Source of the DNA: Candidatus Buchananbacteria bacterium
Lineage (GTDB): Bacteria > Patescibacteriota > Patescibacteriia > Buchananbacterales > UBA6539
Assembly: GCA_041664165.1 (NCBI GenBank)
Contig: JBAYLH010000003.1
Span: forward strand, 3,247-67,246
Reading direction: 5' to 3'
DNA length: 64,000 nucleotides
Part shown: positions 4,925 to 44,269 of the stretch, one piece after another
Layout of the letters: each line of letters opens with the position of its first letter
How positions within the stretch are numbered: the stretch's first letter is position 1
Made by a program: the position numbers and the translations under genes
The notes under the pieces: generated by a model
Seen by the model: the letters and a program-made list of their open reading frames with translations, nothing else
Databases searched by the model: none
Told to the model about the DNA's origin: nothing

Positions 4925-5494
4925 TTAAACAATCTTGGAAAAAAACATCACCAGCGCGCTGGAAACCGTTACCGAAACATTGTCATTTAATCGCAAGGGC
5001 AAGCTTTCAACAATCGCCGCGACCAGCGTCGCTTTCAAACTGACGGAAATTGCCATCGTACCGCTGATTTCCGGCAGCATCCATTTTAATAAAATAAACG
5101 AGCCCAAAGTGCCGAAAACTAAAAAGGCAACGCTGCCGGCGTAGCTTTTCTTCCGGTTCCAGGGTAATTCTTTAACCTTGAAATTCTTGCCGATCAAAGT
5201 CGCACTGCCGTCGCCCAAGGCCAAAATCGCCCAGGAAGCGGCAACAACGGGCAAAGGAAAAACTATCACTAAAAGCAACAAAATAAAAAAATATAAAACC
5301 GCACCTTCGCTGTATTTGCGCTCCACTCGGCGGTAAAAATAAGATTTCATTTTCAGCCTGGGAACGACAAAAAGCGTAATCAGCAGTAAAAACAAAAGTA
5401 AAATCACCGCTTGCCAGCGACTGATAAAACGCAGCAAAAATGCCAATAAAAATAAAAGGATGTGAACAATTTGGCGCTTTTCTTCAGAAAACAT
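4925..5494 (-). CDS. CTP-dependent polyprenol/dolichol kinase or CdsA-like membrane protein
   Basis: 189 aa, polytopic. Motif GDGSATLIGKNFKVKELPWNRKKSYAGSVAF resembles the SEC59/phytol-kinase/CTP_transf_1 family signature. Confidence 0.45.
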   Translation of the reverse strand: MFSEEKRQIVHILLFLLAFLLRFISRWQAVILLLFLLLITLFVVPRLKMKSYFYRRVERKYSEGAVLYFFILLLLVIVFPLPVVAASWAILALGDGSATLIGKNFKVKELPWNRKKSYAGSVAFLVFGTLGSFILLKWMLPEISGTMAISVSLKATLVAAIVESLPLRLNDNVSVTVSSALVMFFSKIV

Positions 5495-5548: not shown

Positions 5549-8500
5549 TTAACCAAAGATACTTTTCTCTTTATTTGGTTCGTCAGCTTTCGGCTCAGCT
5601 GGTTTTTCCATTTTTTCAATTTCAACCGGCGGCACCGATGGTTCCAGCTTAGTTTCAACCGGCGGCACCTGAGCCGTTGCCGAATCAATGTTTGTTTCAA
5701 TATTTTTAACTTTTTCTTCAAGCTGTTCTAAATCCTCTTTTTTCTCCTCAATGTCATGTTTAAGCTGCTCGGCTTGCTGCTTGGCCTTCATTAATTCCTC
5801 CAAAGAATCACGGCCGACTCCCGATAAACTTGGCAGCGGAGTTTGGACTGGCGGAGTCGGTGGCGCCACTGGGGTGATCGGCGGGGTTAAAATAGGTGCC
5901 GACGGCGGAGTCTGGACAGGCGCGGCTGGCGGGCTGCCGGCTTTAGCTTTTTGTAAACCAATATCCAAACTGACTACCGCTTCCTTGTCTTTGCTTAATA
6001 AATCAATCTCATTACTTTTGAAAGGATGATAGCCAAGTTTTTCGGCCGTCACATAATAAATATTGTTATTCACTAAAAACGAATACCGACCCTTGCCATC
6101 AGTTACACGGGTATCCAAAAGCTTATTATATTGCTTATCGTAAATGCGCAAAATCGCCCGCGAAACCGGCTTTCGGTTAGTGTGATCATAAACCATGCCC
6201 CAGTTGCGCGGCGGTTTTTGGTAGCCCAGCCGGCGGAATAAAGCATAAAGCAAACAATGAAAACATAGCATCACCAAAGTAAAAAGGCCGGGACTGATGA
6301 TTAAGGAAATGGTTGCCAACGGAATAGCGGCAAAGGCAGCCAAATATTGGAGCTTGCGCAAATAATATTGGAGGATAATTTTCGCCGCTGGTTTTTCTTC
6401 AATTTGCGGATCAATGGGAATATTGGCAGTAATATCGGCGCGCTGGCCCGTAACTTCAATCGTGCCGCCGTGATACAAGTCCAAATAGCTGACATCTTCT
6501 TTTAAATTTTGGAGATAAGCCGTTGGAAAATCAAATTTCGGCTTAGTCACGGTCAAATAATACCGGCCCGGATCAATCAAAAAGCTGTAACGGCCGAGCT
6601 TATCAGTTACCCGCGACTGGATTAGCCGGTTATTTTCCTTCTGATACAGCCGGACAATCGCCAAATCAACCGGCTGCTTGGTCAGGGCGTTGTAAATCAC
6701 GCCCCATTTTTTGCGACGGCGGCGGAACAGTACCGCAAACGGCTGAGTGATAAAATACTGCAAATAGGAAAAGAAATTAATAAAGGAAAAAGAAGCGAAG
6801 GTATTGACGACAACCGTGGCCACCAAGACCGGGGCGGCGACGGAAACATTGGCCTGCTCAACTTGCGGATTATCAATCACTTTCTCCACAACCTGATCGA
6901 TTATTTCTTTTTGAATAAATTTTTGAATATTTGCCGCTATCTCGGCCGCGCTAATCTCGCTATTATCCAATGGTTTTGAGCAGCCGGAATCGGCCGGGTA
7001 ATCAATTAAACCGTCTCGGTCGTTATCAATGCCATCAAGACACTGAGGTAAGTTAATTTTAAATTCCGGCGGCACGCCGCAGTCGGCCGGACAAGACCAA
7101 GTATTTTCACCGGTTTCGCAAAGCCGGTTGCCGCAGCAAGGCGCCGTCGCCAAACAGCTGCAGCTTGATAAACTGATCTGCTGGCAAATTCCGCAGGCTA
7201 CCTCGCAGCCGGGCTGGCACGAAATTACTTCCGCCGGCCGCCCGATATTTAAATCGCATTTATTAACATCGTAGCATTCGCGCTTTTGCAGCCCATTTTC
7301 GCAAGCGCCCCAGCCTAAGCAGGTCCAGCTTGGCGTACACGGCGTAACGCAGTCTTGCGGGCATGAATTGTTGCTTTCGCCGGTAGCGCAAATACCGTCG
7401 CCGCAGCACGGGATCATTTGTTCGCAAACGCACTGTTCCGCGTTAATCTGCTGGCACTGGCCGCAGCTTAATCCCTGGCAATTGCCATTTGGCCCGCCGT
7501 TGCAAACTTGCTGACTGGCCGGCGGATTAATCGGAACTTGGCAGCCGTTACTGTCAAAACATTGCCGGGTTTGCACCCCGCCGGCCGGCGGACAAACTGC
7601 CGGAGACCATGGCGTGCATTCCCATTGCGAGAGACAGGCAACGTGGCAATCAACGGAACAATTATAAGGATCTTCTCCCGGCGCTTCACAAACGGTATTG
7701 CCGCAACAGTTATTGGTGGCAACGCATTCGCAAGTAACCGGGTTTAGCTGCTGGCAGGTTCCGCAACTGACGCCGGGACAAACCTGGCAGCTTTCCGTGT
7801 ATTCGTAATTGGGCCGGCAAGGCGGAACGGTTTTGTCAACGCAACTTACGGTCAAAGTATCATTTGGCTGGCAAACCCCCGGCGTACAGGAAAAATTCGG
7901 CGTGCAGCTGCAAGCCGGATCACCCGGCGTTGAGCCGTCCGTACAAGTAGAGGCCGGGTAATCACAAAAACCATTGTGGTTGTCATCAAGGCCGTTAGTG
8001 CAATTTTCCACGCCGCCAGTGGTAACGAAAGAACCGGTATGAACCGTCTGTAAAGAGCCGGCACTGGCCGTAATCCGATAATAATAAACCGTATTTGACT
8101 GTAAACCGGTAATATTGTGGCTGAAATTGGTACCCGACAAACCACTGACTGAGCCGTCGCCAACTGCCGGCGTACTCCCCCATTCTAAAATATCAGCGGT
8201 CGGCTGGCATAAAGTTGACCAGCTGACGTTGCCGCTGGTTTGAGCCGCCGCAATTGAAACATTGCTAATCAATAGCTCAATTTGGCAAACTGAAGAACAG
8301 CAATCGCCGGAAACGGTATTGCCGTCATCGCAAGCTTCCCCGGAATCGATAATGCCGTTGCCGCAGCCGACTTCTAGCTGGCAAGCGCCTGAACAGCCAT
8401 CGCCGGAAACGGTATTACCATCATCGCATTCCTCTCCCGAATCTCTAGTCCCGTTGCCGCAGACGGCAATATAACAAGATTGGGTTGACGGCCAATTAGA

Positions 8501-9148
8501 ACAGCCATTGGTGCAAACGCCGCTCTGAACGCCATTAATACATGACCCGTAGCTGCAAACCGTTGCGGTCGGAACACAGACTGGCGTACCGGCTATTTCA
8601 CAAACGCAAGTACTATTGCAAAAATAGCCCGAAGAACAGTCGCCATCGCTCTCACAGCCTTCGCCAGCGTCGATTGTCCCGTTGCCGCAAACCGGACAGG
8701 TACAATTGCTGTTGCAATAATTGTTATAGCAACCGCCGCTAGCCGCATCACTGCCATCGCAGGCTTCTCCGCATTCAGCAATATTATCGCCGCAGACACT
8801 ATCTGCCCGGCTGCAAGTATTATTACAGCCGTCGCAGGAAACGCCATTGCCGTCATCGCAAACTTCGCCGGTGTCGATTGTGCTATTGCCGCAAACCGGA
8901 CAGGTACAATTGCTGTTGCATTGGCCGTTATAGCAGCTACTAGCACCGTCCGTGCCGTCGCAGGTTTCGCCGGTTTCTTTGATGCCGTTGCCGCAAATCG
9001 TTCCCGCCGCTGGCACCGTCGCATTAATGTTAATGGTCGCCGCCAAGGCCTGCTGAACCGAAGGTAAAGCTAAATAAAGAAAAATTAACCCGCCAAGACA
9101 AGTTAAAATAAAACCAAAAAATAAAAATCTTTTACTATCTTTGCTCAT
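5549..9148 (-). CDS. giant cell-surface protein (1199 aa)
   Basis: Long ORF with a signal peptide. It has repeated Cys-rich units of the Myxococcus-type (CGNG-x-D-x-GE-x-CDDGN...DGC). It also has an FN3-like segment and a hydrophobic C-terminal half. That half carries two repeats of TM helix + [10 protein letters not shown](K/G)GRYSF, a carboxypeptidase-regulatory-like fold. A Pro-rich linker and an acidic coiled-coil tail follow. Confidence 0.7.
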
Positions 9149-9152
9149 CAGC

Positions 9153-10118
9153 TTAATTATTAGCTTTCTTGTTTTTTAACTTTTTTATTTTAGAATTGAT
9201 TTTAATTAAAATAATCAAAACGACCAAACCAAAAACCGAAGTAATCAATAAATTAACCGGAATAAACCAGAAGTCCAGCTGAGCCGTTACGGTTTGCTGA
9301 GGCACTAGGCCGTAAGTCAGATTTAAAGTCGCCGTATATTTACCGAAAGTAAAATGATCGATTTCGTTTTTCAGCGCTGAAAAATATTTTTGCCAAAAAT
9401 TGCCGGCAAAACTGCCGCCCCAAAGAGTTTCAAATCTTCTAATACTGCCAGGCAAAACATTTTTTTTATCGGCATTGACCGGCAAAATTTCGGTCTGCCC
9501 CAGCCAATTTTTTAACGTAATATTACCCTCGGGTTTGAGGTGGACATTGCCGGTATTGGCAAACCGGACTAAAAAATTTACCGGAAAGCTGAATAAATAT
9601 TTACTTTCTGAAACTGTCTTAAATTCAGCTAAATTGCCGGACTCGACAACTTCGCCCTTAACTTTCAAAAAAACCAGCGTCCCGACTTGGCTGCTGATGC
9701 CAACCGCCGGGTTTTCCTTGGCCGCCTGAGGCGCGGTCTGCCAAAAAATTACGGCATAATAACCACCCGGCACCGCGTCAAGCGGCACCGTCACTGCAAA
9801 AGGGACAACCAATCCCTGCTTTGACGGCAAAAGCAAAAAATCCTTACTGAGCTTAAACCAGCCTAAATAATCCGTTTTTTCGCGGCCGGTAAGATAAACT
9901 GGCGTACCGGTTTCATCACCCGCGGCAAAAGCTTCGATATTGGGAGTCAAATAAAGCGGCTCGGCGGTTTCATTATAAATTTTTAAAATGCCATTTTGGC
10001 TTTCACCCGGATTGGCTTCCATTTCCAAAATCGGCGAAATAACCGTAACCGCTGAAGACTTGCCGGCGGTTAACAAGGAAAAAAGACAAACTAAAATTAT
10101 AAAAAAAATCTTTTTCAT
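9153..10118 (-). CDS. secreted protein with C-terminal membrane anchor and basic tail (DUF916/DUF3324-like architecture)
   Basis: 321 aa. N-terminal signal peptide, a central beta-rich region, and a C-terminal TM helix followed by KIKKLKNKKANN. Confidence 0.4.
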   Translation of the reverse strand: MKKIFFIILVCLFSLLTAGKSSAVTVISPILEMEANPGESQNGILKIYNETAEPLYLTPNIEAFAAGDETGTPVYLTGREKTDYLGWFKLSKDFLLLPSKQGLVVPFAVTVPLDAVPGGYYAVIFWQTAPQAAKENPAVGISSQVGTLVFLKVKGEVVESGNLAEFKTVSESKYLFSFPVNFLVRFANTGNVHLKPEGNITLKNWLGQTEILPVNADKKNVLPGSIRRFETLWGGSFAGNFWQKYFSALKNEIDHFTFGKYTATLNLTYGLVPQQTVTAQLDFWFIPVNLLITSVFGLVVLIILIKINSKIKKLKNKKANN

Positions 10119-10124
10119 TGACTC

Positions 10125-10853
10125 TTAAAAATTAGCCGTGGTCGAATAAGTTAAAGTGGTCGTATAGGTGCCGGCCGCCGTGCTTGAAGAAATATTAACA
10201 ATATAAGAAACAGTAAAAACCGTTGAGTTGATGTCGGTCGCCGCCGAAGCGACGGTATCACCGCTTTGATAAGCAAACTGGTTAGCCGTATTATACTGGC
10301 TAGCCGCCGAAGCGATCGGCGCTGTCCCGCTGGGATTAGCACCAACGCTCGGCGTCGTATTGGCGGCTAAATTAATGCCGAATTGGGCCGTACCAGCGGC
10401 CGAAGCGGCGGCGGTTCCGCCAATCGCGGCAATGGTATTAACGCCGCTAGTCAAAGTATTGCCGGTAACTTTAATCGTAAAGCCCTTGGCCGCGTTAGTA
10501 TCAACGGTCAAGGTGTGGCTGCCGGAATTAGTCGAAGCGGCGGTTAAAGTGTCTAAATCAACAGCCGTGGCGCCGGCCGAAAGACTCAGGTATTGATCAG
10601 GGTACATTTCGGCAAAGCCGGCTTTCAGGCCGTAGCTAGCCGAAGTCGAACTAGCCGACAAAATCATCCCCTCGCCGATCGTATCCTGCAACAAATAGCT
10701 GGCCGAAGCGCTATTTTCACTTCCGCCGGCGCTGAAATCGTCGGCCCAGATAATATAATTAGGGCTTTGCGTTCTGGCCCAAATCCCGCCGACGGCCAAA
10801 AAAGAAACGAAGATAATTATTAGCAACAAAATAGAATTGAATTTCTTTGGCAT
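10125..10853 (-). CDS. secreted Ser/Thr/Ala-rich surface protein
   Basis: 242 aa with an N-terminal signal/anchor. The composition is low-complexity STA-rich with a C-terminal beta-strand-like TYTTTLTYSTTANF. Confidence 0.4.
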   Translation of the reverse strand: MPKKFNSILLLIIIFVSFLAVGGIWARTQSPNYIIWADDFSAGGSENSASASYLLQDTIGEGMILSASSTSASYGLKAGFAEMYPDQYLSLSAGATAVDLDTLTAASTNSGSHTLTVDTNAAKGFTIKVTGNTLTSGVNTIAAIGGTAAASAAGTAQFGINLAANTTPSVGANPSGTAPIASAASQYNTANQFAYQSGDTVASAATDINSTVFTVSYIVNISSSTAAGTYTTTLTYSTTANF

Positions 10854-10960
10854 CTTTAAAAAATAAGTCTTAATTTACTTTAATTATACTAAAAAATCCA
10901 CCTTAAAGCAAAAGCTGGCCACTTGAAACGGCCAGCTTTTTTAAATTCGAATGATTTTGC

Positions 10961-11533
10961 TTATTGAGCGGCCGGAGCTGTGGGTTCTGGCGTCGGCTGA
11001 TTTTGTTTTTTCAGATAATCGGTAATCGCCTGAACCACCCGAGAATCATTTTTCAAATCCTCAATTAAAACTACATGCTCCCGGTTGATTTTCATTTCAT
11101 CAAGCGGCCCATGGATTTCATTGCCCATCTTGATTAAAGTCAGCCTTTGCTCCGGCTGAGTCTGAACGTCTGCCGGCTGGCCGATCGTATCCTGCAAATT
11201 CACCACTTGGAGATAATAAATATTTTTTAAAATGACGAAATCTTTATTAATTTTGGCTACTTTGCCGAAATAAACTTGACCATTGGCCAGAAAAACTGCC
11301 TGCCATTCGGCTTTCGATGAAGCTAGCCCGGGAATTAAACTGCCGCCGACGCCGGTGTAGCTGGCGATCAGATAAATACCGCCGCCGATAATAATCAAAA
11401 CAACGATCAGAGTGACTAAACCTTTCAGCCAAGATTTTTTGCCGCCTGATTTTTTTTCCGTACCGGCAACTCCTAAACTACCGCCGGGCAGACCCGGAGT
11501 TTTAGAGTTATGGTTGATCATTGGATATGCCAT
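10961..11533 (-). CDS. N-terminally anchored hypothetical protein
   Basis: 190 aa, Gly-rich N-terminus, one TM helix, then a soluble domain. Confidence 0.35.
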   Translation of the reverse strand: MAYPMINHNSKTPGLPGGSLGVAGTEKKSGGKKSWLKGLVTLIVVLIIIGGGIYLIASYTGVGGSLIPGLASSKAEWQAVFLANGQVYFGKVAKINKDFVILKNIYYLQVVNLQDTIGQPADVQTQPEQRLTLIKMGNEIHGPLDEMKINREHVVLIEDLKNDSRVVQAITDYLKKQNQPTPEPTAPAAQ

Positions 11534-15891: not shown

Positions 15892-17691
15892 ATGGATATT
15901 AAATTCAAGGAAAAAATAATCAAGCTTTTCAGAAATGACGCTCGTTTTTGGGATACGGAAAAAGAAGAGCTTAATCAAACTTTACTAAAAGATGCAGTAG
16001 ACAAGTTTGGCGAAAAAGTTATAGAAACTCTTTTGGCTGACTCAGAAGCCAAAAAACAATTTTTTGTAAAAGTTAAAGATGCTTATATTTTTAAACCAAA
16101 TGATTTTAAGTTTTTTCTTGATGAAAACAAACTTGATAATTCATATACTCAACTAGCTAATAAAATCGGACTTGCCACGGAAGAAATTTCCAGCGAAAAG
16201 GTGGTTTTGAATTGGCCGTTTAAGGATTGCGTGCTTGAAGGTGGAATGACCAAGGAAGATGCGATGGATGTTTACTTCAAATATGACACTAAAATCGGTG
16301 AATGGAAAGAAGAAAAAGCCAAAAGAAAAGAAATATTTTTTAATGAGGTATTGGCTCGCGACGAAATAGACAGACTAGAAGAACCGAAAACTTTCTATAA
16401 ATGGAAAAGATTTACAGAAAAGAATTATCAAAAAGGTGAAGATGTTAAAGAAATAAAAAGAGATAAAGACGGAAACATAAAAGAAAATCTTGTTATTAAA
16501 GGCAATAATTTACTCGCCTTGTATTCTCTAAAAGAACAATTTGAAGGAAAAATTAAATTAATTTATATTGACCCTCCTTATAATACTGGCAGCGATAGTT
16601 TTTCTTATAATGATAATTTTAACCATTCTTCTTGGTTAACATTTATGAAGAATAGGTTGCAAGTCGCAAGAAATTTACTTGCAGACGACGGGCTTATTTT
16701 TGTTCAGATAGGACACAATGAACAGGCTTATTTGAGAGTTTTAATGGATGAAGTTTTTAGCCGGGCCAGATTTGTTAATGAAATTACTTGGAAAAAATAT
16801 AGTGGTGTAAAAAATCAAGCAAGCAAAAAGCTTACAACTCAACAAGAAACGATATTCTTATACTCAAAAACTGAGAATTATTCAATTAACATGGTTTATA
16901 ATGAGTTATCTGAAAAATATGTTAAAGATGAATATAAATATATTGATGAAAATGGAAGAAGGTATGCGAAATTAAGAGGTAGAGGATATCAGGGTGGAGG
17001 CAAAGGAACAAAAATAAAATATTTAGATGAAAATTTAGGATCCCCAATAACAACTTTATGGGACGAAGATTTTTTGCAAATCAGCACATCATCTTCAGAA
17101 AAAATTGCAGATTTTGTCGGGCAAAAACCAGAGTCCTTGTTAAAGAGAATAATAGAATTAACAACTAATCCCGGAGATGTGGTTCTAGATTATCATGCCG
17201 GCACGGGAACAACTTGTGCGGTTGCCCATAAAATAGGACGTCAATGGATTGGTGTGGAACAATTGGATTATTCAGAAAATAATCCTGAGGAAAGAATGAG
17301 AGGTGTGATTGCTGGTGATAAAAACGGAATTTCCAAAGGGGTAAATTGGAAAGGTGGCGGTGATTTTATTTATATTCAACTCGCAAAATGGAACGAGGAG
17401 GCAAAAGAGAAAATTGCTGAAGTAAAGTCATATGACGAACTAACAAAACTTTTTGCCAATTTGTATGAAAAATATTTTCTTAACTACAACGTCAAGGCAA
17501 AAGATTTTAAAGAAAATGATATAAAAAGTGAGGAATTTAAAAAAATATCTTTGTCTGAGCAAAAAAAGATGGTCGCCCGCATGCTTGATCTCAATCAGAT
17601 GTATATAAACTTTAGCGAGAGGAAAGATAAAAAGTACAACCTTTTAAAAGATGATATTGCTTTGAGTGAGGAGTTTTATGATAAGAAATAG
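15892..17691 (+). CDS. mod: type III restriction-modification DNA methyltransferase (Mod), beta-class N6A/N4C MTase
   Basis: 599 aa. Motif IV IDPPYNTG precedes motif I (VLDYHAGTGTTCAVA), the circular-permuted order typical of type III Mod. It is translationally coupled to the downstream Res gene (stop/start 2 nt apart). Confidence 0.85.
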   Translation: MDIKFKEKIIKLFRNDARFWDTEKEELNQTLLKDAVDKFGEKVIETLLADSEAKKQFFVKVKDAYIFKPNDFKFFLDENKLDNSYTQLANKIGLATEEISSEKVVLNWPFKDCVLEGGMTKEDAMDVYFKYDTKIGEWKEEKAKRKEIFFNEVLARDEIDRLEEPKTFYKWKRFTEKNYQKGEDVKEIKRDKDGNIKENLVIKGNNLLALYSLKEQFEGKIKLIYIDPPYNTGSDSFSYNDNFNHSSWLTFMKNRLQVARNLLADDGLIFVQIGHNEQAYLRVLMDEVFSRARFVNEITWKKYSGVKNQASKKLTTQQETIFLYSKTENYSINMVYNELSEKYVKDEYKYIDENGRRYAKLRGRGYQGGGKGTKIKYLDENLGSPITTLWDEDFLQISTSSSEKIADFVGQKPESLLKRIIELTTNPGDVVLDYHAGTGTTCAVAHKIGRQWIGVEQLDYSENNPEERMRGVIAGDKNGISKGVNWKGGGDFIYIQLAKWNEEAKEKIAEVKSYDELTKLFANLYEKYFLNYNVKAKDFKENDIKSEEFKKISLSEQKKMVARMLDLNQMYINFSERKDKKYNLLKDDIALSEEFYDKK

Positions 17692-17693
17692 TT

Positions 17694-20462
17694 ATGCCTG
17701 AAAAATATCTTTACGAAGAATTAAAAGAAAAGGCTTTTGATTATGGTATCTCAAAATCGCAGATACCTGATTTTATTGTTGATAATTTGAAGTATCCTTT
17801 ATTTGCTTGGCAAAAAAATGCCATAGAAAATTTTTTAACTTATGAGGAAATTAGAAAAGAAGAAGGTGGTTTGAAGCCACTGCATTTAATGTTTAATATG
17901 GCTACGGGTACTGGAAAAACATTGGTTATGGCGGCCCTGATCTTGTATTTTTATAAAAAAGGGTATAAGAATTTTATATTTTTTGTAAATCAAAACAATA
18001 TTGTTGATAAAACAGAAAATAATTTTATTAACAAAAGCCATAGCAAATATCAATTTAAACAGAATATTGTCATAGATAATAAAACAGTGCAAATAAAAAA
18101 AGTTGATACTTTTTTATCGAAATCGGAAGATATTCAAATAAAGTTTACTTCTATTCACAAACTCCATAATGCCGTATATTTAGCAAAAGAAAACTCTGTT
18201 TTTTTGGAGGAGTTGCAACGACAAGATTTAATTATGTTGGGAGATGAAGCTCATCATTTTAATGCTACTACTAAGAAGAATAAACCCGTCCAGTTAAGCT
18301 TATCCGGTGAATTGTCGGAGAGCGCAAGTCAGGAAGAAATTGAAAAGAGTTGGGAAGATACAGCTATTAATAAAATTTTAAAAAGGGGCAATAATAATAA
18401 AAATAAGCAAAATAATAACGCCCTTTTGGAGTTTACGGCGACAATACCGAGAGATCAGAGTGTAGACGATAAATATAGAGATAAAATTATTTATAAGTTT
18501 ACTCTAGAAAGCTTTCTTGACGCTGGTTATACCAAAGAAATCAATCTGGTCTCTTCAACTCTTAATAAAAAAGAACGAATTTTGTCGGTTTTATTATTGA
18601 ATTGGTATCGGCATAGTATAGCAGTAAAAAATAACCTACCGAATTTTAAGCCGGTTATTTTGTTTAGAAGTAAAACAATTGAAGATTCTAGAAAAGATTT
18701 TGATGAATTTTTGGATATTGTAAAAAAGCTTTAAAAAGACGATTTTAATTTTTTAAACTCAATAGACAAAAATTTCTTTGAGGGTGGAAATTTGTTTGAT
18801 AAAGGGAAGAGTAAAATTTTGGCAATGACCAGATTTATCAAGAATGAAAATATTAAATTCCCTGAAATCATTAACTGGATAAAATATTCATTTGCGGATA
18901 GAAATTGTTTGATAACCAACTCAAAAGATAATAAGAAAAAAAATAAAGAAGAAACCGATGAAGATCAAGATAGATTGCTTAACAGCTTGGAAGATCAAGA
19001 TAATCATATACGAGCAATTTTTACTGTTAAAAGATTGACTGAAGGGTGGGATGTTTTAAACTTATTTGACATAGTTCGTCTTTATGAAGGCCGTGATGAG
19101 TGGCATGATAAAAAAACTGGCGAAAGGAATGCTGGGGATTCCACCATCTCAGAGATTCAGTTAATTGGTAGAGGCGTGCGATATTTCCCTTTTAAATACC
19201 AAGACAAAGAAGCAAATAAGAGAAAATTTGATAATGATTTAGACAATCCGATGCGAGTATTGGAAGAATTTGACTTTCATTGTTTTGACGATAATCGTGG
19301 ACACTTTATAGATGAGCTTAAGCGTGAATTGAAACGTAAGGGGTTTATAAAAGAAACTAAGGTTAGAAAAAAGTTTGAATTAAAAACAGATTTTAAGAAT
19401 TCTGAGTTTTATAAAACAGTTAAAATTTTTTTAAACCATAAAATTGAAAATGTTAACAAACGTAAAAACAGTCTCAAAGAAATAAGGAGTGGCTTGAATT
19501 TTGAATATAGGTTAAAAACTTTCTCAATTAAAGAAGAACAAGTTAAATTAGGGAACAAAGAAGATGCGACACTTTTGGAAACCATAGGTGATGAAATGAA
19601 AACTCTGACCGTGAAATTAAATAGTTTTGAAAAAAATATCGTATATAAAGCGCTGAATATACATGCGAAAAAAGATAACTCGCTATATCGTTTCGATCAT
19701 CTTGCTTCCGAGTTTGAAGTTGAAAGTATTGATGAATTATTCAAAGAGGACATTTTAGGTGATATAAAAATAAATCTGGTCACATCTTCCAGTGTAAAAA
19801 AATTAGATAATGTTAATCAAGGCGAAAAATTAGGTATCCTACTCGCTTTTTTTGAGAAGTTAGAGGCTGAATTAAAGACAGTAAGTAATCCATATCTCGG
19901 CACAGAATTTAATGGTGTAAAATTTTCTGAAATTTTTGGAGGTACAAAAGAAAAAGCCGTAGAAATAGATGAGGAGAGCGAAAGAATAGAAAAAGAGTTA
20001 AAAGAACAAGACTGGTATGTCCTTAGTGGTTTTAATGGTACAAGCGAAGAAAGGTGTTTAATTGATTTTTTGAAAGAAAAAATTGGTAATCTAAAATCAA
20101 AATACGAAGAAGTATATTTACTCAGAAATGAAGAGATATACAAAATTTATGATTTTGAAAGAGGACGCGGTTTTCAACCGGATTTCTTACTGTTTTTAAA
20201 ACGTAGTAAACAAAGATTATATTACCAAGTTTTCATTGAGCCAAAGGGTTCGCAGTTCGCTGATAGAAGTGGTATTTTTGTAGAAAGTAAAGAGGCATGG
20301 AAAGAAGATTTTTTGAAAGAAATTACTAGGAGATATTCTGAAAAAGAAGTACTAAAAATGGAAAATAATCAGTACAAACTCATTGGCTTACCACTGTTTA
20401 ATGAGAGAATAAAAACAGATTTTGACAATGAATTTAATAGGCAGGTTTTGGAAGCTATTTAA
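17694..20462 (+). pseudogene. res: type III restriction enzyme Res subunit, interrupted by one in-frame TAA (18732-18734)
   Basis: ORFs 17694..18734 and 18792..20462 are in the same frame and are separated only by TAA at 18732-18734, which I checked codon by codon. The N-terminal half has helicase motif I (NMATGTGKT) and the DEAH box (LGDEAHH). The C-terminal half has motif VI (LIGRGVRY) and a PD..EPK nuclease motif (QPDF...FIEPKG). Combined length is ~922 codons, typical for Res. Confidence 0.75.
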
Positions 20463-40618: not shown

Positions 40619-41623
40619 TTAGGGTGCGGCAGGAGCACTGGTTGCCGGAGGGGCAACCGGGGGTTTAGGAGCAGGAGCTGGCGCAGGAGCCGGCTTGTTA
40701 ATCAACCCCTTTACCAGAGTCGGGTCGATTCCGGCGACACCCATATCCGCCGCTGAATTTTCCAGGCTCTTTTTGATTGCCTGGTATAACGGCGAGTCGG
40801 GGCCAGCCTGAATGGCATGAATTGCCATCCTATCCCAGGAAATATCCTTGGGAATACCAATGGCCGGTTGTCCCTTTGGGGTGCCGTTTACCACAACCGG
40901 AACCACGGTATCGGCTTGAGTGGTAGCGATTGCCGAACCACCTGTCGCCGGCGCAGGTGCCGAAGTGGCGGAACTGATCGGATTTTCCGATTCTTCCGCC
41001 AGCTTTCCCTTCGGAGACAGAATCTCCCATGCCCAGAATATCCCTAAAACAATAACCAGGGATACCAAGAGTACTACCGCGGCTCTTACCAAGCTACCCC
41101 GAATACGTTGTTCACGATTCGGCGTAGTAGGCGTAGTGGGCGCAGGAGTCGGTTCAGGCTGGACGTCGTCAAACCATAACGGCACACTGCCTCCATCACT
41201 AAACGGGTCGACCACTGGAGGTTCTGTTCCAGGGGTTGCGGCCGACGCACGCGCAGGAGTGGGAGCCGGTTCAAAAACCGGTTCCTCAAGAAGAGCAGAC
41301 AGATCCTGATCCTCATTTACTCCGCCACCGTCGCCGAAAGACTCAAGCGGCGGCAAACCATCAGGACCATCTACGGGTTTCGGGTTGGGCGAGAATTGAT
41401 TGATCAACTCGACCAGGGCGTTTCCATCGACTTGAATGGATCCGCTTTGCAGCTGCGCCAAGGCAAGATCAAAAAACTCTTTCCGAGGTAAAACATCTTC
41501 GTACCGCAGCCACGAAAGGCCAAGGTTGCGAAGATTTTCTTCGAGATTGGCGTCATTTAGGACGCCAATTAGGCCGGCGGCATCTAAAACAGCAGTCGCC
41601 TGTCTGATTTCCTGAAGAGTCAT
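40619..41623 (-). CDS. Pro/Ala-rich single-pass membrane protein, hypothetical (GC-rich operon, gene 3)
   Basis: 334 aa. The N-terminal cytoplasmic region is Pro-rich with acidic patches. A TM helix at ~175-195 is followed by a C-terminal (PA)n tract. The gene overlaps the upstream gene by 4 nt (ATGA). Confidence 0.45.
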   Translation of the reverse strand: MTLQEIRQATAVLDAAGLIGVLNDANLEENLRNLGLSWLRYEDVLPRKEFFDLALAQLQSGSIQVDGNALVELINQFSPNPKPVDGPDGLPPLESFGDGGGVNEDQDLSALLEEPVFEPAPTPARASAATPGTEPPVVDPFSDGGSVPLWFDDVQPEPTPAPTTPTTPNREQRIRGSLVRAAVVLLVSLVIVLGIFWAWEILSPKGKLAEESENPISSATSAPAPATGGSAIATTQADTVVPVVVNGTPKGQPAIGIPKDISWDRMAIHAIQAGPDSPLYQAIKKSLENSAADMGVAGIDPTLVKGLINKPAPAPAPAPKPPVAPPATSAPAAP

Positions 41624-42612
41624 GACTCTCCTCCTTCTCTAATCCGTCGGATTTTGACTTCCAGCGGACTACCGGTTAACAACTTGAACCGCAGTACTTC
41701 TCCCAGCAGGCTACCGGTAGAAAAATGCACCCGGGCACACCACTGGTTATCGGCTAATTGAACCGGGTTGAGTGGCCCAAATAATCCGTCACCCGATCTC
41801 ACCCGCAGCCGCTTCACGTCGTTTTCCGAATTCAATGGTCCGAATTCGAAAATTTCGTCTTTACAAACGACGACGTTGGTCGGCGTCCACCCTTGGGGGT
41901 CAGATCCAGCCATTGTGGCTAAAACCATCCCTTCTTTGGGTCGCGCCGCCTTGGATAGCGACAACAACGGTTTAACTGCGACAGCCAATTCCACTTTTAC
42001 TTCCTTTTGACTAGGAATTGGGCCAAGACAGCCATGCCAGACGTAGCCCAAAATCCAGCTGGCGCCGTCTGTCTTCAATTGCTGAACCGGCACCAGAGAC
42101 TCGGCCATACCGCCGGTTTTGAAGGCCAAACGGTAACAGGCCTTGACCGGACGACTTTGGTCCAAGACCTGATCGTCCATCGGTGCCCAGCCGCCTTCTT
42201 TGACCTGCATTAGCGGCGCTGGTGAGCGGACGATTATCCGTTCAGTCCAGTCCGTAACGCTAGCAAAGCCTTCGGCTAGCCGGTTGCTTGCCGCTGCGAT
42301 TTGCTCAATATCAATGAGCTGCTTCGTCATCGCCGCGGCGTTAGGATTTATGTTGTTTGGTCCAGGCAACTGAACCTGGAAATCCTTGACATTGATTGAT
42401 GCAACTACCGGCTTTACTTTTACTCCCCAAAATATCTTGCCGGGGACAAAAGTATTGGCCAGCAGCACTGCCAGGGGTATTACTACCAGCAGCACCCACT
42501 TCCAACGAGATTGCCAGAAGAGAGCCACTGCCAAAACCGCGACAGCCACGCTTGCTATTGGATAAAACATCCAGCTAAGCGCCGCTAACACCACCACCAG
42601 AAAAATTCTCAT
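41620..42612 (-). CDS. hypothetical membrane-anchored protein (GC-rich operon, gene 2)
   Basis: 330 aa, two N-terminal TM helices, then a soluble domain. No recognisable motifs. Confidence 0.4.
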   Translation of the reverse strand: MRIFLVVVLAALSWMFYPIASVAVAVLAVALFWQSRWKWVLLVVIPLAVLLANTFVPGKIFWGVKVKPVVASINVKDFQVQLPGPNNINPNAAAMTKQLIDIEQIAAASNRLAEGFASVTDWTERIIVRSPAPLMQVKEGGWAPMDDQVLDQSRPVKACYRLAFKTGGMAESLVPVQQLKTDGASWILGYVWHGCLGPIPSQKEVKVELAVAVKPLLSLSKAARPKEGMVLATMAGSDPQGWTPTNVVVCKDEIFEFGPLNSENDVKRLRVRSGDGLFGPLNPVQLADNQWCARVHFSTGSLLGEVLRFKLLTGSPLEVKIRRIREGGES

Positions 42613-42623
42613 CTTCCATTCTC

Positions 42624-43673
42624 CTACTTGGAGGCCTTAGCGGGCCTCTCCGGTTTGCTTTCTTCGGCTTCAGGTTTTTCTTTGGCCGGCTTTTCACCCC
42701 CACCGGTGAACCCACCAAACTTCAATGTCATTTCGGGAAAAGCCAGTCCACTGTGACCACTGCCAATCACGCCTTCTAGTGCCTTCATTATCGGGAAGGC
42801 GATGTTTGCCCAATGTTTATCAGGTAATCCGGTTACAGCCCGAATTTCCTTGATTGCCCTGGCCTGATGGACAGCAGCACGAGCACCAAACTCAGCTGCC
42901 TTGACGCTGGCCATGGCCGCCAGAACTTCCTTGAGAGGATAGATATTTTCGATCCGCACTTCCACTTTAAGACCGAAGTCTTTAAAGAAGTGCGTGCCAT
43001 TTACTAAGTCGGTCGCGGCCCGAGCCATCGCTAGGAGCTTAGCCGTTGGTAAATCGACCAATTCAGTATCCTCAAATCCCGCCGTCATATAATTAAGTAA
43101 GGCGGACATGAACTGCTCAACAATCCCTCTTACATCCTCCTTAATCGTGATTGCTGCTACGACCGGATTTTCCGTTGGCCAAACCGTTACCTGGCTATCA
43201 ACGACAACCGGGTTACTTCGGGTGTTAACCTGCCTTTGCAGCAGGTTAATATTAATCGGCCGGCAATCAAACAGCTTGACCGTTTCGAACAATAACCGGG
43301 GAAACCAGATTATTCGCCAACCGGATCTTTTGGCATAAAAGCCGGTCAGCGACTTTTCGTCAGCACCCCTAGTTCTCCGAACCACCCACGCAAAATTGGG
43401 CGGTATGTCTCGAATTTCGCACAGCGCGAGGATGATAAACCTCAAATACTTCTGATCACCCTCGACTATTTCTGAGCGCTCCCACCAGGGAACCTTCAGA
43501 AACTTCTGACTTATCACCCACCAGCCCGCCATGGCTGCCGAAATAATCACCAAGGTGAAAATCAAGGCAAATAACGGCGTCAGTGAGGCAATAAAAATAA
43601 ACACCACCAAACTGAGCAGCACCATTGCTGCCACCAACAACCATTCCCATCTGTTAAAATCCATGTCGCGCAC
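42624..43673 (-). CDS. SPFH/band-7 (stomatin/prohibitin-like) domain protein (GC-rich operon, gene 1)
   Basis: 349 aa. An N-terminal TM hairpin is followed by VVRRTRG...GW.I.FP.L....K.D.R......L, which fits the SPFH core. The C-terminus is a Lys/Glu/Pro-rich tail. Confidence 0.55.
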   Translation of the reverse strand: MRDMDFNRWEWLLVAAMVLLSLVVFIFIASLTPLFALIFTLVIISAAMAGWWVISQKFLKVPWWERSEIVEGDQKYLRFIILALCEIRDIPPNFAWVVRRTRGADEKSLTGFYAKRSGWRIIWFPRLLFETVKLFDCRPININLLQRQVNTRSNPVVVDSQVTVWPTENPVVAAITIKEDVRGIVEQFMSALLNYMTAGFEDTELVDLPTAKLLAMARAATDLVNGTHFFKDFGLKVEVRIENIYPLKEVLAAMASVKAAEFGARAAVHQARAIKEIRAVTGLPDKHWANIAFPIMKALEGVIGSGHSGLAFPEMTLKFGGFTGGGEKPAKEKPEAEESKPERPAKASK

Positions 43674-43873: not shown

Positions 43874-44269
43874 TTACTGCGACGTTGCAGAACTCCCCGG
43901 TTGAGTGGTAGCGCCGCTCGTACTATCCCCGCCAGCCACCGCATTGATGACAAAAGTGACCAAAGCGTAAGAAGTGAAAATCACCGCTAGACCGAAAGAA
44001 GCCCAAATAATTATATCTTTGCCTTTTTTGATTTTTTCGTCGTTACCCGAAGAAATCACCCACATAAAACCGCCCAAAATAAACGCCCCCAAAGCCAGGG
44101 AGCCGACAATGCCCAAAGCCGCTTTAATCACCCGGCCGACAATCACTCGCGGATCGTCTGTGCCCAAAGGATTATCCAGCTTGGTTTGGGCTAAGACCAC
44201 GCCGACATCAGCCAAAAATAAAAATAATAGCGAGGCGATTAAAATAAATTTTTTGGTCTTTTTTGGCAT
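43874..44269 (-). CDS. small secreted two-helix membrane protein (TrbC/VirB2-pilin-like architecture), hypothetical
   Basis: 131 aa. A long signal peptide, two hydrophobic helices separated by a KIKKGKD loop, and a Ser/Thr/Gly tail. Confidence 0.3.
   Translation of the reverse strand: MPKKTKKFILIASLLFLFLADVGVVLAQTKLDNPLGTDDPRVIVGRVIKAALGIVGSLALGAFILGGFMWVISSGNDEKIKKGKDIIIWASFGLAVIFTSYALVTFVINAVAGGDSTSGATTQPGSSATSQ

Follow-up and report, generated by a model that had tools for sequence, protein, structure and literature searches.

Do three closely spaced genes for predicted secreted proteins of 242, 321 and 1199 amino acids specify one surface structure in a Candidatus Buchananbacteria bacterium, and if so, of what kind? 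The genes lie in a 64,000-nucleotide stretch of contig JBAYLH010000003.1 (assembly GCA_041664165.1, positions 3,247 to 67,246), here called the window. An earlier note, made from the letters of this stretch alone, had described them as a surface-protein cluster led by the 1199-aa protein, with the two others downstream, and had raised the idea of a host-attachment apparatus. The three open reading frames (ORFs) are present where that note placed them:

10125..10853, minus strand: 242-aa gene, PamT-like pilin
9153..10118, minus strand: 321-aa gene, membrane-tethered chaperone-like protein (WxLIP / PamC-D / PapD fold)
5549..9148, minus strand: giant gene, 1199 aa, proposed membrane-anchored stalk and basal/anchor subunit

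Since all three are on the minus strand, they are transcribed in the order 242 aa, 321 aa, 1199 aa; the giant gene is the last of the unit, not its leader, and the other two lie upstream of it. The intergenic gaps are 6 nt (242/321) and 4 nt (321/giant). Gene calls on public contigs, one from a Joint Genome Institute (JGI) metagenome and two short ones from Logan, gave the identical three genes, and the names found on homologues are Patescibacteria or Candidatus Buchananbacteria (Parcubacteria group). No paralogues of any of the three proteins were found within the window. On balance, and with moderate confidence, we favour the view that the locus encodes a minimal Pam-type pilus, chaperone-assisted, donor-strand-complemented and usher-less, of a Buchananbacteria-like Patescibacterium. 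The features of the three genes are far beyond chance, with family E-values of 1e-14 to 1e-47 and a gene block conserved in nine species.

Pam pili were reported in 2026 in Candidatus Mycosynbacter amalyticus, a cultivated Saccharibacterium (Troman et al., bioRxiv 10.64898/2026.03.03.709456). According to that preprint, filaments of PamA and PamB seen by electron cryomicroscopy (cryo-EM) are built through donor-strand exchange, PamT is a single-domain tip pilin of 25.6 kDa, and PamC and PamD are PapD/FimC-like chaperones with a C-terminal transmembrane (TM) helix. PamR is a membrane-tethered fibronectin type III (FnIII) protein whose N-terminal strand is predicted to enter the last pilin. The system has no usher, and there is no outer membrane; the pili are proposed to serve in host contact, and their highest prevalence is reported in Saccharimonadia and Microgenomatia (bioRxiv 10.64898/2026.03.03.709456). 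The idea of a host-attachment apparatus fits, by analogy, this proposed role.

The product of the first gene is, by its sequence, a Pam-family pilin. It scores 148.3 bits (E = 1.7e-43) against the NCBIfam model NF058581, CPR_Pam_pilin_C, for which the cutoff is 55, and 160.1 bits (E = 6e-47) against NF058579, PamT, with residues 8-242 aligned to profile positions 6-241. Its size is the same as that of PamT. On this alignment the protein is PamT-like over its full length, without being a PamT equivalog. It had been described as a secreted protein rich in Ser, Thr and Ala; the composition holds, as these residues make up 47% of the mature protein, which has no Cys, but the protein is not a generic one. 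No direct Pfam match was obtained for it. Its parts are as follows:

10776-10853, minus strand: signal peptide, residues 1-26
10599-10775, minus strand: conserved N-terminal region, residues 27-85, with the motifs SxNYxIWAD, SxSYxLxDxIGE and YGxKAGF, predicted to be disordered in the monomer
10572-10598, minus strand: strand DQYLSLSAG, residues 86-94
10128-10571, minus strand: truncated immunoglobulin (Ig)-like pilin domain, residues 95-242, with a nearly invariant C-terminal Phe (at least 90% conserved)

In the AlphaFold2 (AF2) model of this protein the predicted local distance difference test score (pLDDT) is about 97 over residues 85-242 and falls below 50 over residues 27-80, which nevertheless bear strongly conserved motifs in the family alignment. 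Foldseek matches to the model were weak, and nearly all were pilin domains of chaperone-usher systems. A sequence search of the PDB with the pilin family profile returned nothing, the copy searched being one without the Pam structures 25PZ and 25QA. A motif resemblance had raised the possibility that the Pam pilin domain is a diverged WxL domain; this was unsupported: none of 40 family members matched PF13731, and the 50 best fold matches included no WxL chain. PamT-like genes with the same N-terminal motif also occupy the first position in two of the loci fetched for comparison, L034 and L036.

The second gene encodes a protein with these predicted elements:

10050-10118, minus strand: signal peptide, residues 1-23
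9660-9767, minus strand: beta-hairpin with a flexible loop, residues 118-153, candidate donor (G1-like) strand
about 9156-9257, minus strand: C-terminal TM helix and Lys-rich tail, residues 288-321

It is thus predicted to be secreted and held by a C-terminal anchor with a Lys-rich tail, as had been proposed. Its AF2 model, built with 46 homologues (pLDDT 92.7), consists of two beta-sandwich domains and a long C-terminal helix (288-320). In a Foldseek search against the PDB the top matches were the Enterococcus faecium WxLIP structures 9i1y and 9i25 (E about 4e-11), the second of which is WxLIP in complex with a long WxL protein; they were followed by CfaA, CsuC, EcpB, DraB, PapD, CupB2, SafB, Caf1M and FimC (1e-10 to 1e-7). 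A PapD/FimC-like fold joined to a C-terminal TM helix, as found here by AF2 and Foldseek, is the architecture of PamC and PamD. The protein is therefore better read, from its model, as a membrane-tethered PapD/FimC-like chaperone of the PamC/D type than as the accessory anchor it had been taken for. In the model, residues 118-153 fold into a pair of strands in which hydrophobic residues alternate, with a loop of low confidence; judged by analogy to the F1-G1 hairpin that chaperone-usher chaperones have, this is likely to be the strand-donating element.

Sequence comparisons add to the link with WxLIP. The Pfam family PF06030, WxLIP_PGBD (DUF916), is matched by 22 of the 46 family members, though not by the 321-aa protein of the window, and the family profile finds the solved EfmWxLIP1 at E = 2.4e-5, over domain 1 only. 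DUF3324 (PF11797) was found in none of the 46. Models of the PapD family (PF00345, PF02753) gave no match to the 321-aa protein at E <= 1, so that this likeness is structural only, and the NCBIfam models for PamC, PamD and PamR matched none of the Saccharibacteria or Parcubacteria chaperones or tethers. These results suggest kinship between the Pam chaperones and the WxLIP (DUF916) proteins of Firmicutes; the Pam preprint, which mentions neither WxL nor DUF916, does not draw this link (bioRxiv 10.64898/2026.03.03.709456). The resemblance to Gram-positive cell-surface complexes that had been suspected, with DUF916 and DUF3324 as the families to look for, is thereby borne out, as a distant homology, for WxLIP and PF06030 and not for a WxL domain, DUF3324 or an LPXTG motif.

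The third gene encodes what appears to be the tether. A conserved strand following the signal peptide, an FN3 domain and a membrane anchor are observed in its sequence:

9011..9040, minus strand: mature N-terminus, residues 37-46 (ATININATV strand), candidate donor strand directly after the signal-peptide site
6974..9007, minus strand: predicted extracellular disulfide-rich stalk (Cys repeats, FN3-like domain, about 95-aa repeats)
8009-8263, minus strand: FN3-like Pur_ac_phosph_N domain, residues 296-380 (Pfam match 297-376)
5954..6853, minus strand: duplicated C-terminal anchor module (Pfam PF13620 twice)
6725-6853, minus strand: hydrophobic region 1 of the module, residues 766-808
6707-6724, minus strand: RRRRKK, basic cluster after hydrophobic region 1
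6404-6706, minus strand: first CarboxypepD_reg domain (PF13620), residues 815-915
6233-6352, minus strand: hydrophobic hairpin (region 2 of the module), residues 933-972, then a basic stretch
5954-6199, minus strand: second CarboxypepD_reg domain (PF13620), residues 984-1065
5654..5941, minus strand: Pro-rich linker (1070-1107) and acidic, heptad-like coiled-coil tail (1112-1165)

The signal peptide has a hydrophobic stretch at residues 6-32 and an AxA site between QALA and AT. Directly after it comes a strand of the pattern x[IV]x[IV]xAx[VI], which in an alignment is kept in 9 of 9 giant orthologues (ADVNVNANV is another example), while the Cys-rich 150 residues that follow are only 21-47% conserved among the same nine. 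By regular expression, 19 of 122 other full-length-like proteins, taken from the top representatives of those with the same C-terminal module (hereafter the C-module), show the motif at their N-terminus, on otherwise unrelated ectodomains. As a control, the window and all the fetched loci were searched for it in their 219 ORFs with a hydrophobic N-terminus. Nine carried it, namely eight giant orthologues and the protein encoded directly after the chaperone gene in locus L035, and none of the roughly 210 other ORFs, the secreted background, did.

Between strand and anchor lies the stalk, and 94 of the 97 Cys of the protein fall within residues 1-720. Repeats of the Myxococcus type occupy residues 48-295, where TIGR02232 scores 73.6 bits (cutoff 20.8) over three stretches and DUF4215 also matches. 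The type of repeat claimed earlier is thus correct, but the count of at least eight is not: the hidden Markov models (HMMs) support three canonical repeats, motif counting finds six CG[ND]x units in residues 52-295, and three further units of about 95 aa, in residues 440-700, are of a distinct CCGNxxCExGE type. The region 381-725 consists of these 95-aa repeats together with DGxDND motifs. The internal repeats of the stalk are 37-74% identical. The signal peptide and the FN3-like segment were correctly recognized. In its repeats, its FN3 domain and its long, repetitive, rod-like ectodomain the giant protein resembles the Myxococcus-type Cys-rich repeat proteins (TIGR02232/DUF4215) and fibrillar adhesins; it differs in that the repeats form the shaft only, the N-terminal strand and the C-terminal anchor defining its role.

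The C-module is the most conserved part of the giant protein, with column identity up to 0.86 among the nine orthologues. Its two halves are genuine repeats of each other (44% identical over 68 aa, E = 4e-18), each with a carboxypeptidase-regulatory-like beta-sandwich (CarboxypepD_reg, E = 5e-14), as had been noticed. The Pro-rich linker and acidic coiled coil, equally visible in the sequence, are far less constant, with column identity of 0.30-0.38 and weak coiled-coil family matches only, and they are missing from most C-module proteins. Charges were counted in 39 homologues: on average there are 5.2 Lys and Arg against 0.05 Asp and Glu in the 10 residues that follow hydrophobic region 1, and 4.0 against 0.13 in the 14 residues after region 2. 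In these homologues neither beta-sandwich domain contains any Cys. Region 2 looks like a helical hairpin, being 40 residues long with a central Pro-Gly and basic residues on both flanks. By the positive-inside rule, these charges indicate that both beta-sandwich domains and the tail most likely lie in the cytoplasm, not embedded in the membrane as had been supposed. One additional CarboxypepD_reg domain, in locus L034, is clearly extracellular and has no basic cluster, which fits the basic clusters as topogenic signals.

Nor is this C-terminal half unusual. A search of 1.84 billion representative proteins with the C-module gave 3940 matches, 982 of them (representative clusters) at E <= 1e-30. 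The module is always C-terminal, its carriers range from about 500 to 3858 aa, and the named carriers are Patescibacteria or Parcubacteria. For none of the proteins scanned did a Pfam or NCBIfam model span the whole module, only generic beta-sandwich models being matched. The N-termini of all 141 top C-module representatives were classed by domain with phmmer: 20 carry the N-terminal domain of two-domain Pam pilins, 4 a chaperone domain like that of the 321-aa protein and 11 a cohesin-like domain, and between 2 and 5 of the top representatives have the PamT N-terminal motif. These sequence matches suggest that the C-module is a widespread C-terminal membrane anchor of the Candidate Phyla Radiation (CPR), present in at least 982 protein clusters and used by many Pam-related proteins. 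Pfam phage_tail_N (PF08400) also matches it weakly; the preprint records that pam operons are consistently accompanied by a "tail fibre-like protein" (bioRxiv 10.64898/2026.03.03.709456), which may be the C-module family. A further set of CPR proteins of about 520 aa (P0296, P0299, P0314, P0319 and P0286; L030-L033) has a type IV prepilin N-terminus and a pilin-like head fused to the double TM/CarboxypepD_reg module. Judged from this architecture, they would be pilin-like proteins unable to leave the membrane; their genes lie beside the envelope genes PAP2, BacA and YceG.

Is the three-gene arrangement itself conserved? A locus search run with an alignment of 14 close sequences identified nine species, represented by metagenome-assembled genomes (MAGs), that share a block consisting of an AI-2E permease gene, a 190-aa gene, the pilin, chaperone and giant genes, a 189-aa gene and the glycyl-tRNA synthetase (GlyRS) gene. 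In several of these loci start and stop codons overlap. The three genes thus form an operon-like unit for surface proteins that is conserved in relatives, the point on which the earlier note had proposed a check.

More distant loci vary in design. L034 is non-syntenic and flanked by PolA, RmuC and S20. Its first gene is PamT-like; genes for a two-domain pilin, for a TM chaperone (42% identical) and for proteins of 754 aa and 875 aa come after it in that order. The 754-aa protein has a pilin-NTD-like (N-terminal domain) start, three FN3 domains and a dockerin-like end; the 875-aa protein has a cohesin-like start and the same C-module (49% identity, E = 1e-107). In L035 the gene behind that of the chaperone specifies an N-strand protein that carries a dockerin, and cohesin-TM proteins come next. 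The layouts of the window, L034 and L035 indicate that the gene or genes after the chaperone encode a basal or anchoring component, in three different architectures, and the giant protein of the window looks like a fusion of tether and anchor. The occurrence of dockerin(-like) C-termini on pilus-base proteins and cohesin(-like) N-termini on membrane-anchored proteins (L034 10171-15082, L035 10025-14050) suggests cohesin-dockerin tethering of pili in some Parcubacteria; Pfam Dockerin_1 and Cohesin matched only in L035, the evidence in L034 being at the level of motifs. L035 and L036 come from the same metagenome as the window but were rejected as parts of the same genome, given GC contents of 0.34 and 0.57 against 0.42 and tetranucleotide correlations of 0.83 and 0.03.

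Loci of another kind were seen in MAGs of diderm Omnitrophota, Planctomycetia and Acidobacteriota (L017 118-8838, L018, L019, L026 8015-13678 and L028). Their order is a run of genes for secreted pilin-like proteins of 160-325 aa, a gene for a two-Ig protein like the 321-aa protein without a TM anchor, and a gene for a protein of about 1000 aa. This last protein was considered as a classical usher and rejected, having T2SS-T3SS_pil_N and SdrD_B/CarboxypepD_reg domains instead of PF00577; in the Omnitrophota and Acidobacteriota loci, too, the chaperone gene is followed by that of a large protein rich in CarboxypepD_reg. All these diderm loci look like a chaperone-dependent fibre system that is undescribed and has ties to Pam and WxL.

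Set against the described Pam system, the window locus likewise has a CPR-specific pilin with a truncated Ig-like C-terminal domain and a first gene of PamT size; its chaperone is PapD/FimC-like and bears a C-terminal TM helix, an usher is absent, and the giant, as the proposed membrane-tethered base protein with an N-terminal beta-strand and an FnIII domain, may take the place of PamR. It differs in having one pilin and one chaperone instead of four pilins (PamA, B, E and T) and two chaperones, and where the Pam system has PamR, a 32.8-kDa single-TM protein, the proposed tether here is a Cys-rich giant of 1199 aa whose anchor is a duplicated TM/CarboxypepD_reg module. The lineage is also different, the Parcubacteria group (Buchananbacteria-like) as opposed to Saccharimonadia or Microgenomatia. 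With chaperone-usher pili (Pap/Fim/Csu/CFA-I) the locus has in common a two-domain Ig-like chaperone fold, a pilin domain missing a strand and an N-terminal donor strand with alternating hydrophobic residues. It is nevertheless not such a system, as the usher PF00577 was found in none of the three proteins; this CPR bacterium would moreover, going by the Pam preprint, have no outer membrane, the chaperone is membrane-anchored, and sequence similarity to the PapD-family Pfam models is lacking. Neither is it a sortase pilus, since no LPxTG-like motif occurs in the three proteins.

From the pilin family membership, the chaperone fold and distant homology, the domain content, synteny, motif conservation and motif enrichment computed here, we infer a scheme in which the 321-aa protein acts as a chaperone and gives way to a strand of the giant protein, and with it the stoichiometry, the topology, the physical attachment and the binding to a host. 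All three proteins are predicted to be exported by Sec, and the 321-aa protein to be held in the cell membrane by its C-terminal helix. A beta-strand of its first domain would cap the incomplete Ig fold of the 242-aa pilin, as in PapD/FimC, PamC/D and WxLIP, and would then be exchanged for the N-terminal strand ATININATV of the giant protein. The pilin would thereby be locked non-covalently onto the distal end of a disulfide-rich stalk of about 690 residues, either as a single cap or as the base of a short homopolymer, the latter formed through its own DQYLSLSAG strand. The stalk would be fixed in the membrane by the duplicated anchor module, with the beta-sandwich domains and coiled-coil tail probably in the cytoplasm, so that the giant protein may do two jobs in one polypeptide, that of pilus tether (PamR in the described system) and that of membrane anchor.

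Several points weigh against this scheme. No two-domain major pilin of the PamA/PamB type was found in the 64-kb window, and a true filament may therefore not form; such pilins are present in L013, L034, L035 and L036. The PamT score of the pilin is below the 240-bit equivalog cutoff. Its DQYLSLSAG strand aligns with the linker region of two-domain pilins, and self-polymerisation or self-complementation by this strand is an alternative use of the groove. The 321-aa protein itself has no Pfam or NCBIfam match, even at E = 10, and its identity is derived only from homologues, structure prediction and fold search. The structure models, of the 242-aa and 321-aa proteins, are monomers, the placement of the giant N-terminus in the pilin groove being inferred, and the topology of the anchor is based on charge statistics only. 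Synteny by itself is weak evidence, as the housekeeping neighbours (AI-2E permease, GlyRS) are also conserved, and the C-module family is so large that its presence beside Pam genes in L034 could be partly coincidence.

Two other explanations share part of the evidence. In the first, the three proteins form a static complex like that of a WxL cluster, in which the 321-aa protein is a permanent anchor that keeps the 242-aa protein, and perhaps also the giant, at the cell surface by an inserted strand, with neither strand exchange nor a fibre. WxLIP is the single best structural and sequence match of the 321-aa protein, which has the same architecture of signal peptide, two Ig-like domains and C-terminal TM helix; a WxLIP-long WxL complex has been solved (9i25); and the commonest WxL cluster of Firmicutes (WxLIP = DUF916+DUF3324+TM; Siezen 2006; Hassan et al. 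2023, PMC10599100; PDB 9i1y/9i25) combines one WxLIP with one small and one large partner in a monoderm envelope, mirroring the 321-aa, 242-aa and giant proteins. Yet neither the WxL domain PF13731 nor a W-x-L motif was found in the 242-aa protein, its 40-member family or the giant protein, and the locus is for this reason not a WxL cluster. DUF3324 was likewise not detected, and for its anchoring the large protein has a C-terminal module of its own where its WxL counterpart has a C-terminal WxL domain. The partner of the 321-aa protein is moreover a Pam pilin, from a family that includes PamA and PamB, which polymerise through donor-strand exchange as seen by cryo-EM, and the conserved N-terminal strand of the giant would be left unexplained. 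We regard a static complex as rather unlikely.

We judge it similarly improbable that only the 242-aa and 321-aa proteins are a Pam pilin/chaperone pair, the giant being a self-anchored fibrillar adhesin that merely shares their transcript. This would agree with the generic nature of the C-module, found on thousands of very different large CPR proteins and adjoining envelope genes in other lineages with no Pam genes nearby, with the Saccharibacteria loci, which keep only the pilin-chaperone pairing and have no such giant protein, and with the extent of the synteny into housekeeping genes in all nine loci. It is opposed by the 4-nt gap and the overlapping codons of orthologous loci, by the N-terminal strand, which is both conserved and specific to C-module and Pam-locus proteins, and by the Pam-related N-termini of at least 35 of the 141 top C-module representatives. 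In L034 and L035, too, the chaperone is followed by an anchoring protein, in a different architecture each time, and a lone PamT-like pilin would, without the giant protein, have no tether. An unrelated function, such as a solute-binding protein with an enzyme, or an S-layer, we consider hardly credible. Although the 321-aa and 242-aa proteins lack direct Pfam matches, the domain searches gave no solute-binding, enzymatic or S-layer family match, and fold and family evidence consistently indicates a pilin and a chaperone; the possibility raised earlier, that a solute-binding 321-aa protein would set the genes apart, found no support.

The sequences around the unit were inspected for transcription signals:

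10910..10940, minus strand: perfect 11-bp hairpin (AAAAGCTGGCC...GGCCAGCTTTT) followed by a T tract, 3' of the 190-aa gene, read from the intergenic sequence
10883..10888, minus strand: TATAAT, a -10-like box found by sequence inspection; the start codon of the 242-aa gene follows after 29 nt, and TTGCTT lies 17 nt upstream of the box

The hairpin, which was not among the outputs of the consensus promoter and terminator scan, is likely to be a terminator that sets the 190-aa gene apart from the three-gene unit. The box and TTGCTT are a weak candidate for the promoter of the unit, since TTGCTT matches the -35 consensus at only 3 of 6 positions. A second hairpin is located 3' of the giant-gene stop codon, and the consensus scan found no convincing signal within the unit. 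The adjoining 190-aa gene (10961-11533, minus strand) encodes a single-TM protein. On the other side, 54 nt after the giant gene, a gene for a 189-aa multi-TM protein (4925-5494, minus strand) has the position taken in other CPR by the polyprenol-phosphate genes PAP2 and BacA beside C-module genes. Both neighbours are present in 9 of 9 syntenic loci and neither has a family match.

Elsewhere in the window, a 131-aa ORF (43874-44269, minus strand) matches a type IV secretion system pilin family (PF18895, E = 1.6e-9). The three ORFs adjoining it (40619-43673, minus strand) lie in a GC-rich stretch (0.49-0.52, where the window averages about 0.42) and encode an SPFH/Band_7 protein and two proteins without a family. 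A low-GC island (0.30-0.32) at 15892-20462 on the plus strand encodes three proteins: a 599-aa methylase of Type III restriction-modification, a 346-aa subunit of the ResIII helicase type and a 556-aa HI_1054-like protein. It is probably a horizontally acquired defence island.

The present locus bears on how Pam pili are tethered to the cell and on how prevalent they are. It suggests that a minimal, three-gene form of the Pam system exists in the Parcubacteria group, outside the two classes of highest reported prevalence, and that the basal tether may be a giant stalk with a conserved N-terminal strand. More speculatively, and in our view improbably on present evidence, the C-module could be an undescribed, CPR-wide membrane platform of at least about 1000 clusters that replaces the usher in monoderm donor-strand pili and physically couples extracellular fibres to beta-sandwich and coiled-coil domains in the cytoplasm; the fibres on it would comprise Pam-type strands, pilin N-terminal domains, chaperone domains, cohesin-like domains and even type IV pilin-like heads. 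If this were true, the coupling could permit control of assembly or signalling across the membrane, and Pam pili, the WxL clusters of Firmicutes and the chaperone-dependent loci of Omnitrophota and Acidobacteriota would be branches of one ancient system. If our reading of the locus is confirmed, three surface-assembly systems now treated separately become connected, and the N-terminal strand, the C-module and the PamT motif would serve as sequence markers for host-contact structures in uncultivated ultrasmall bacteria.

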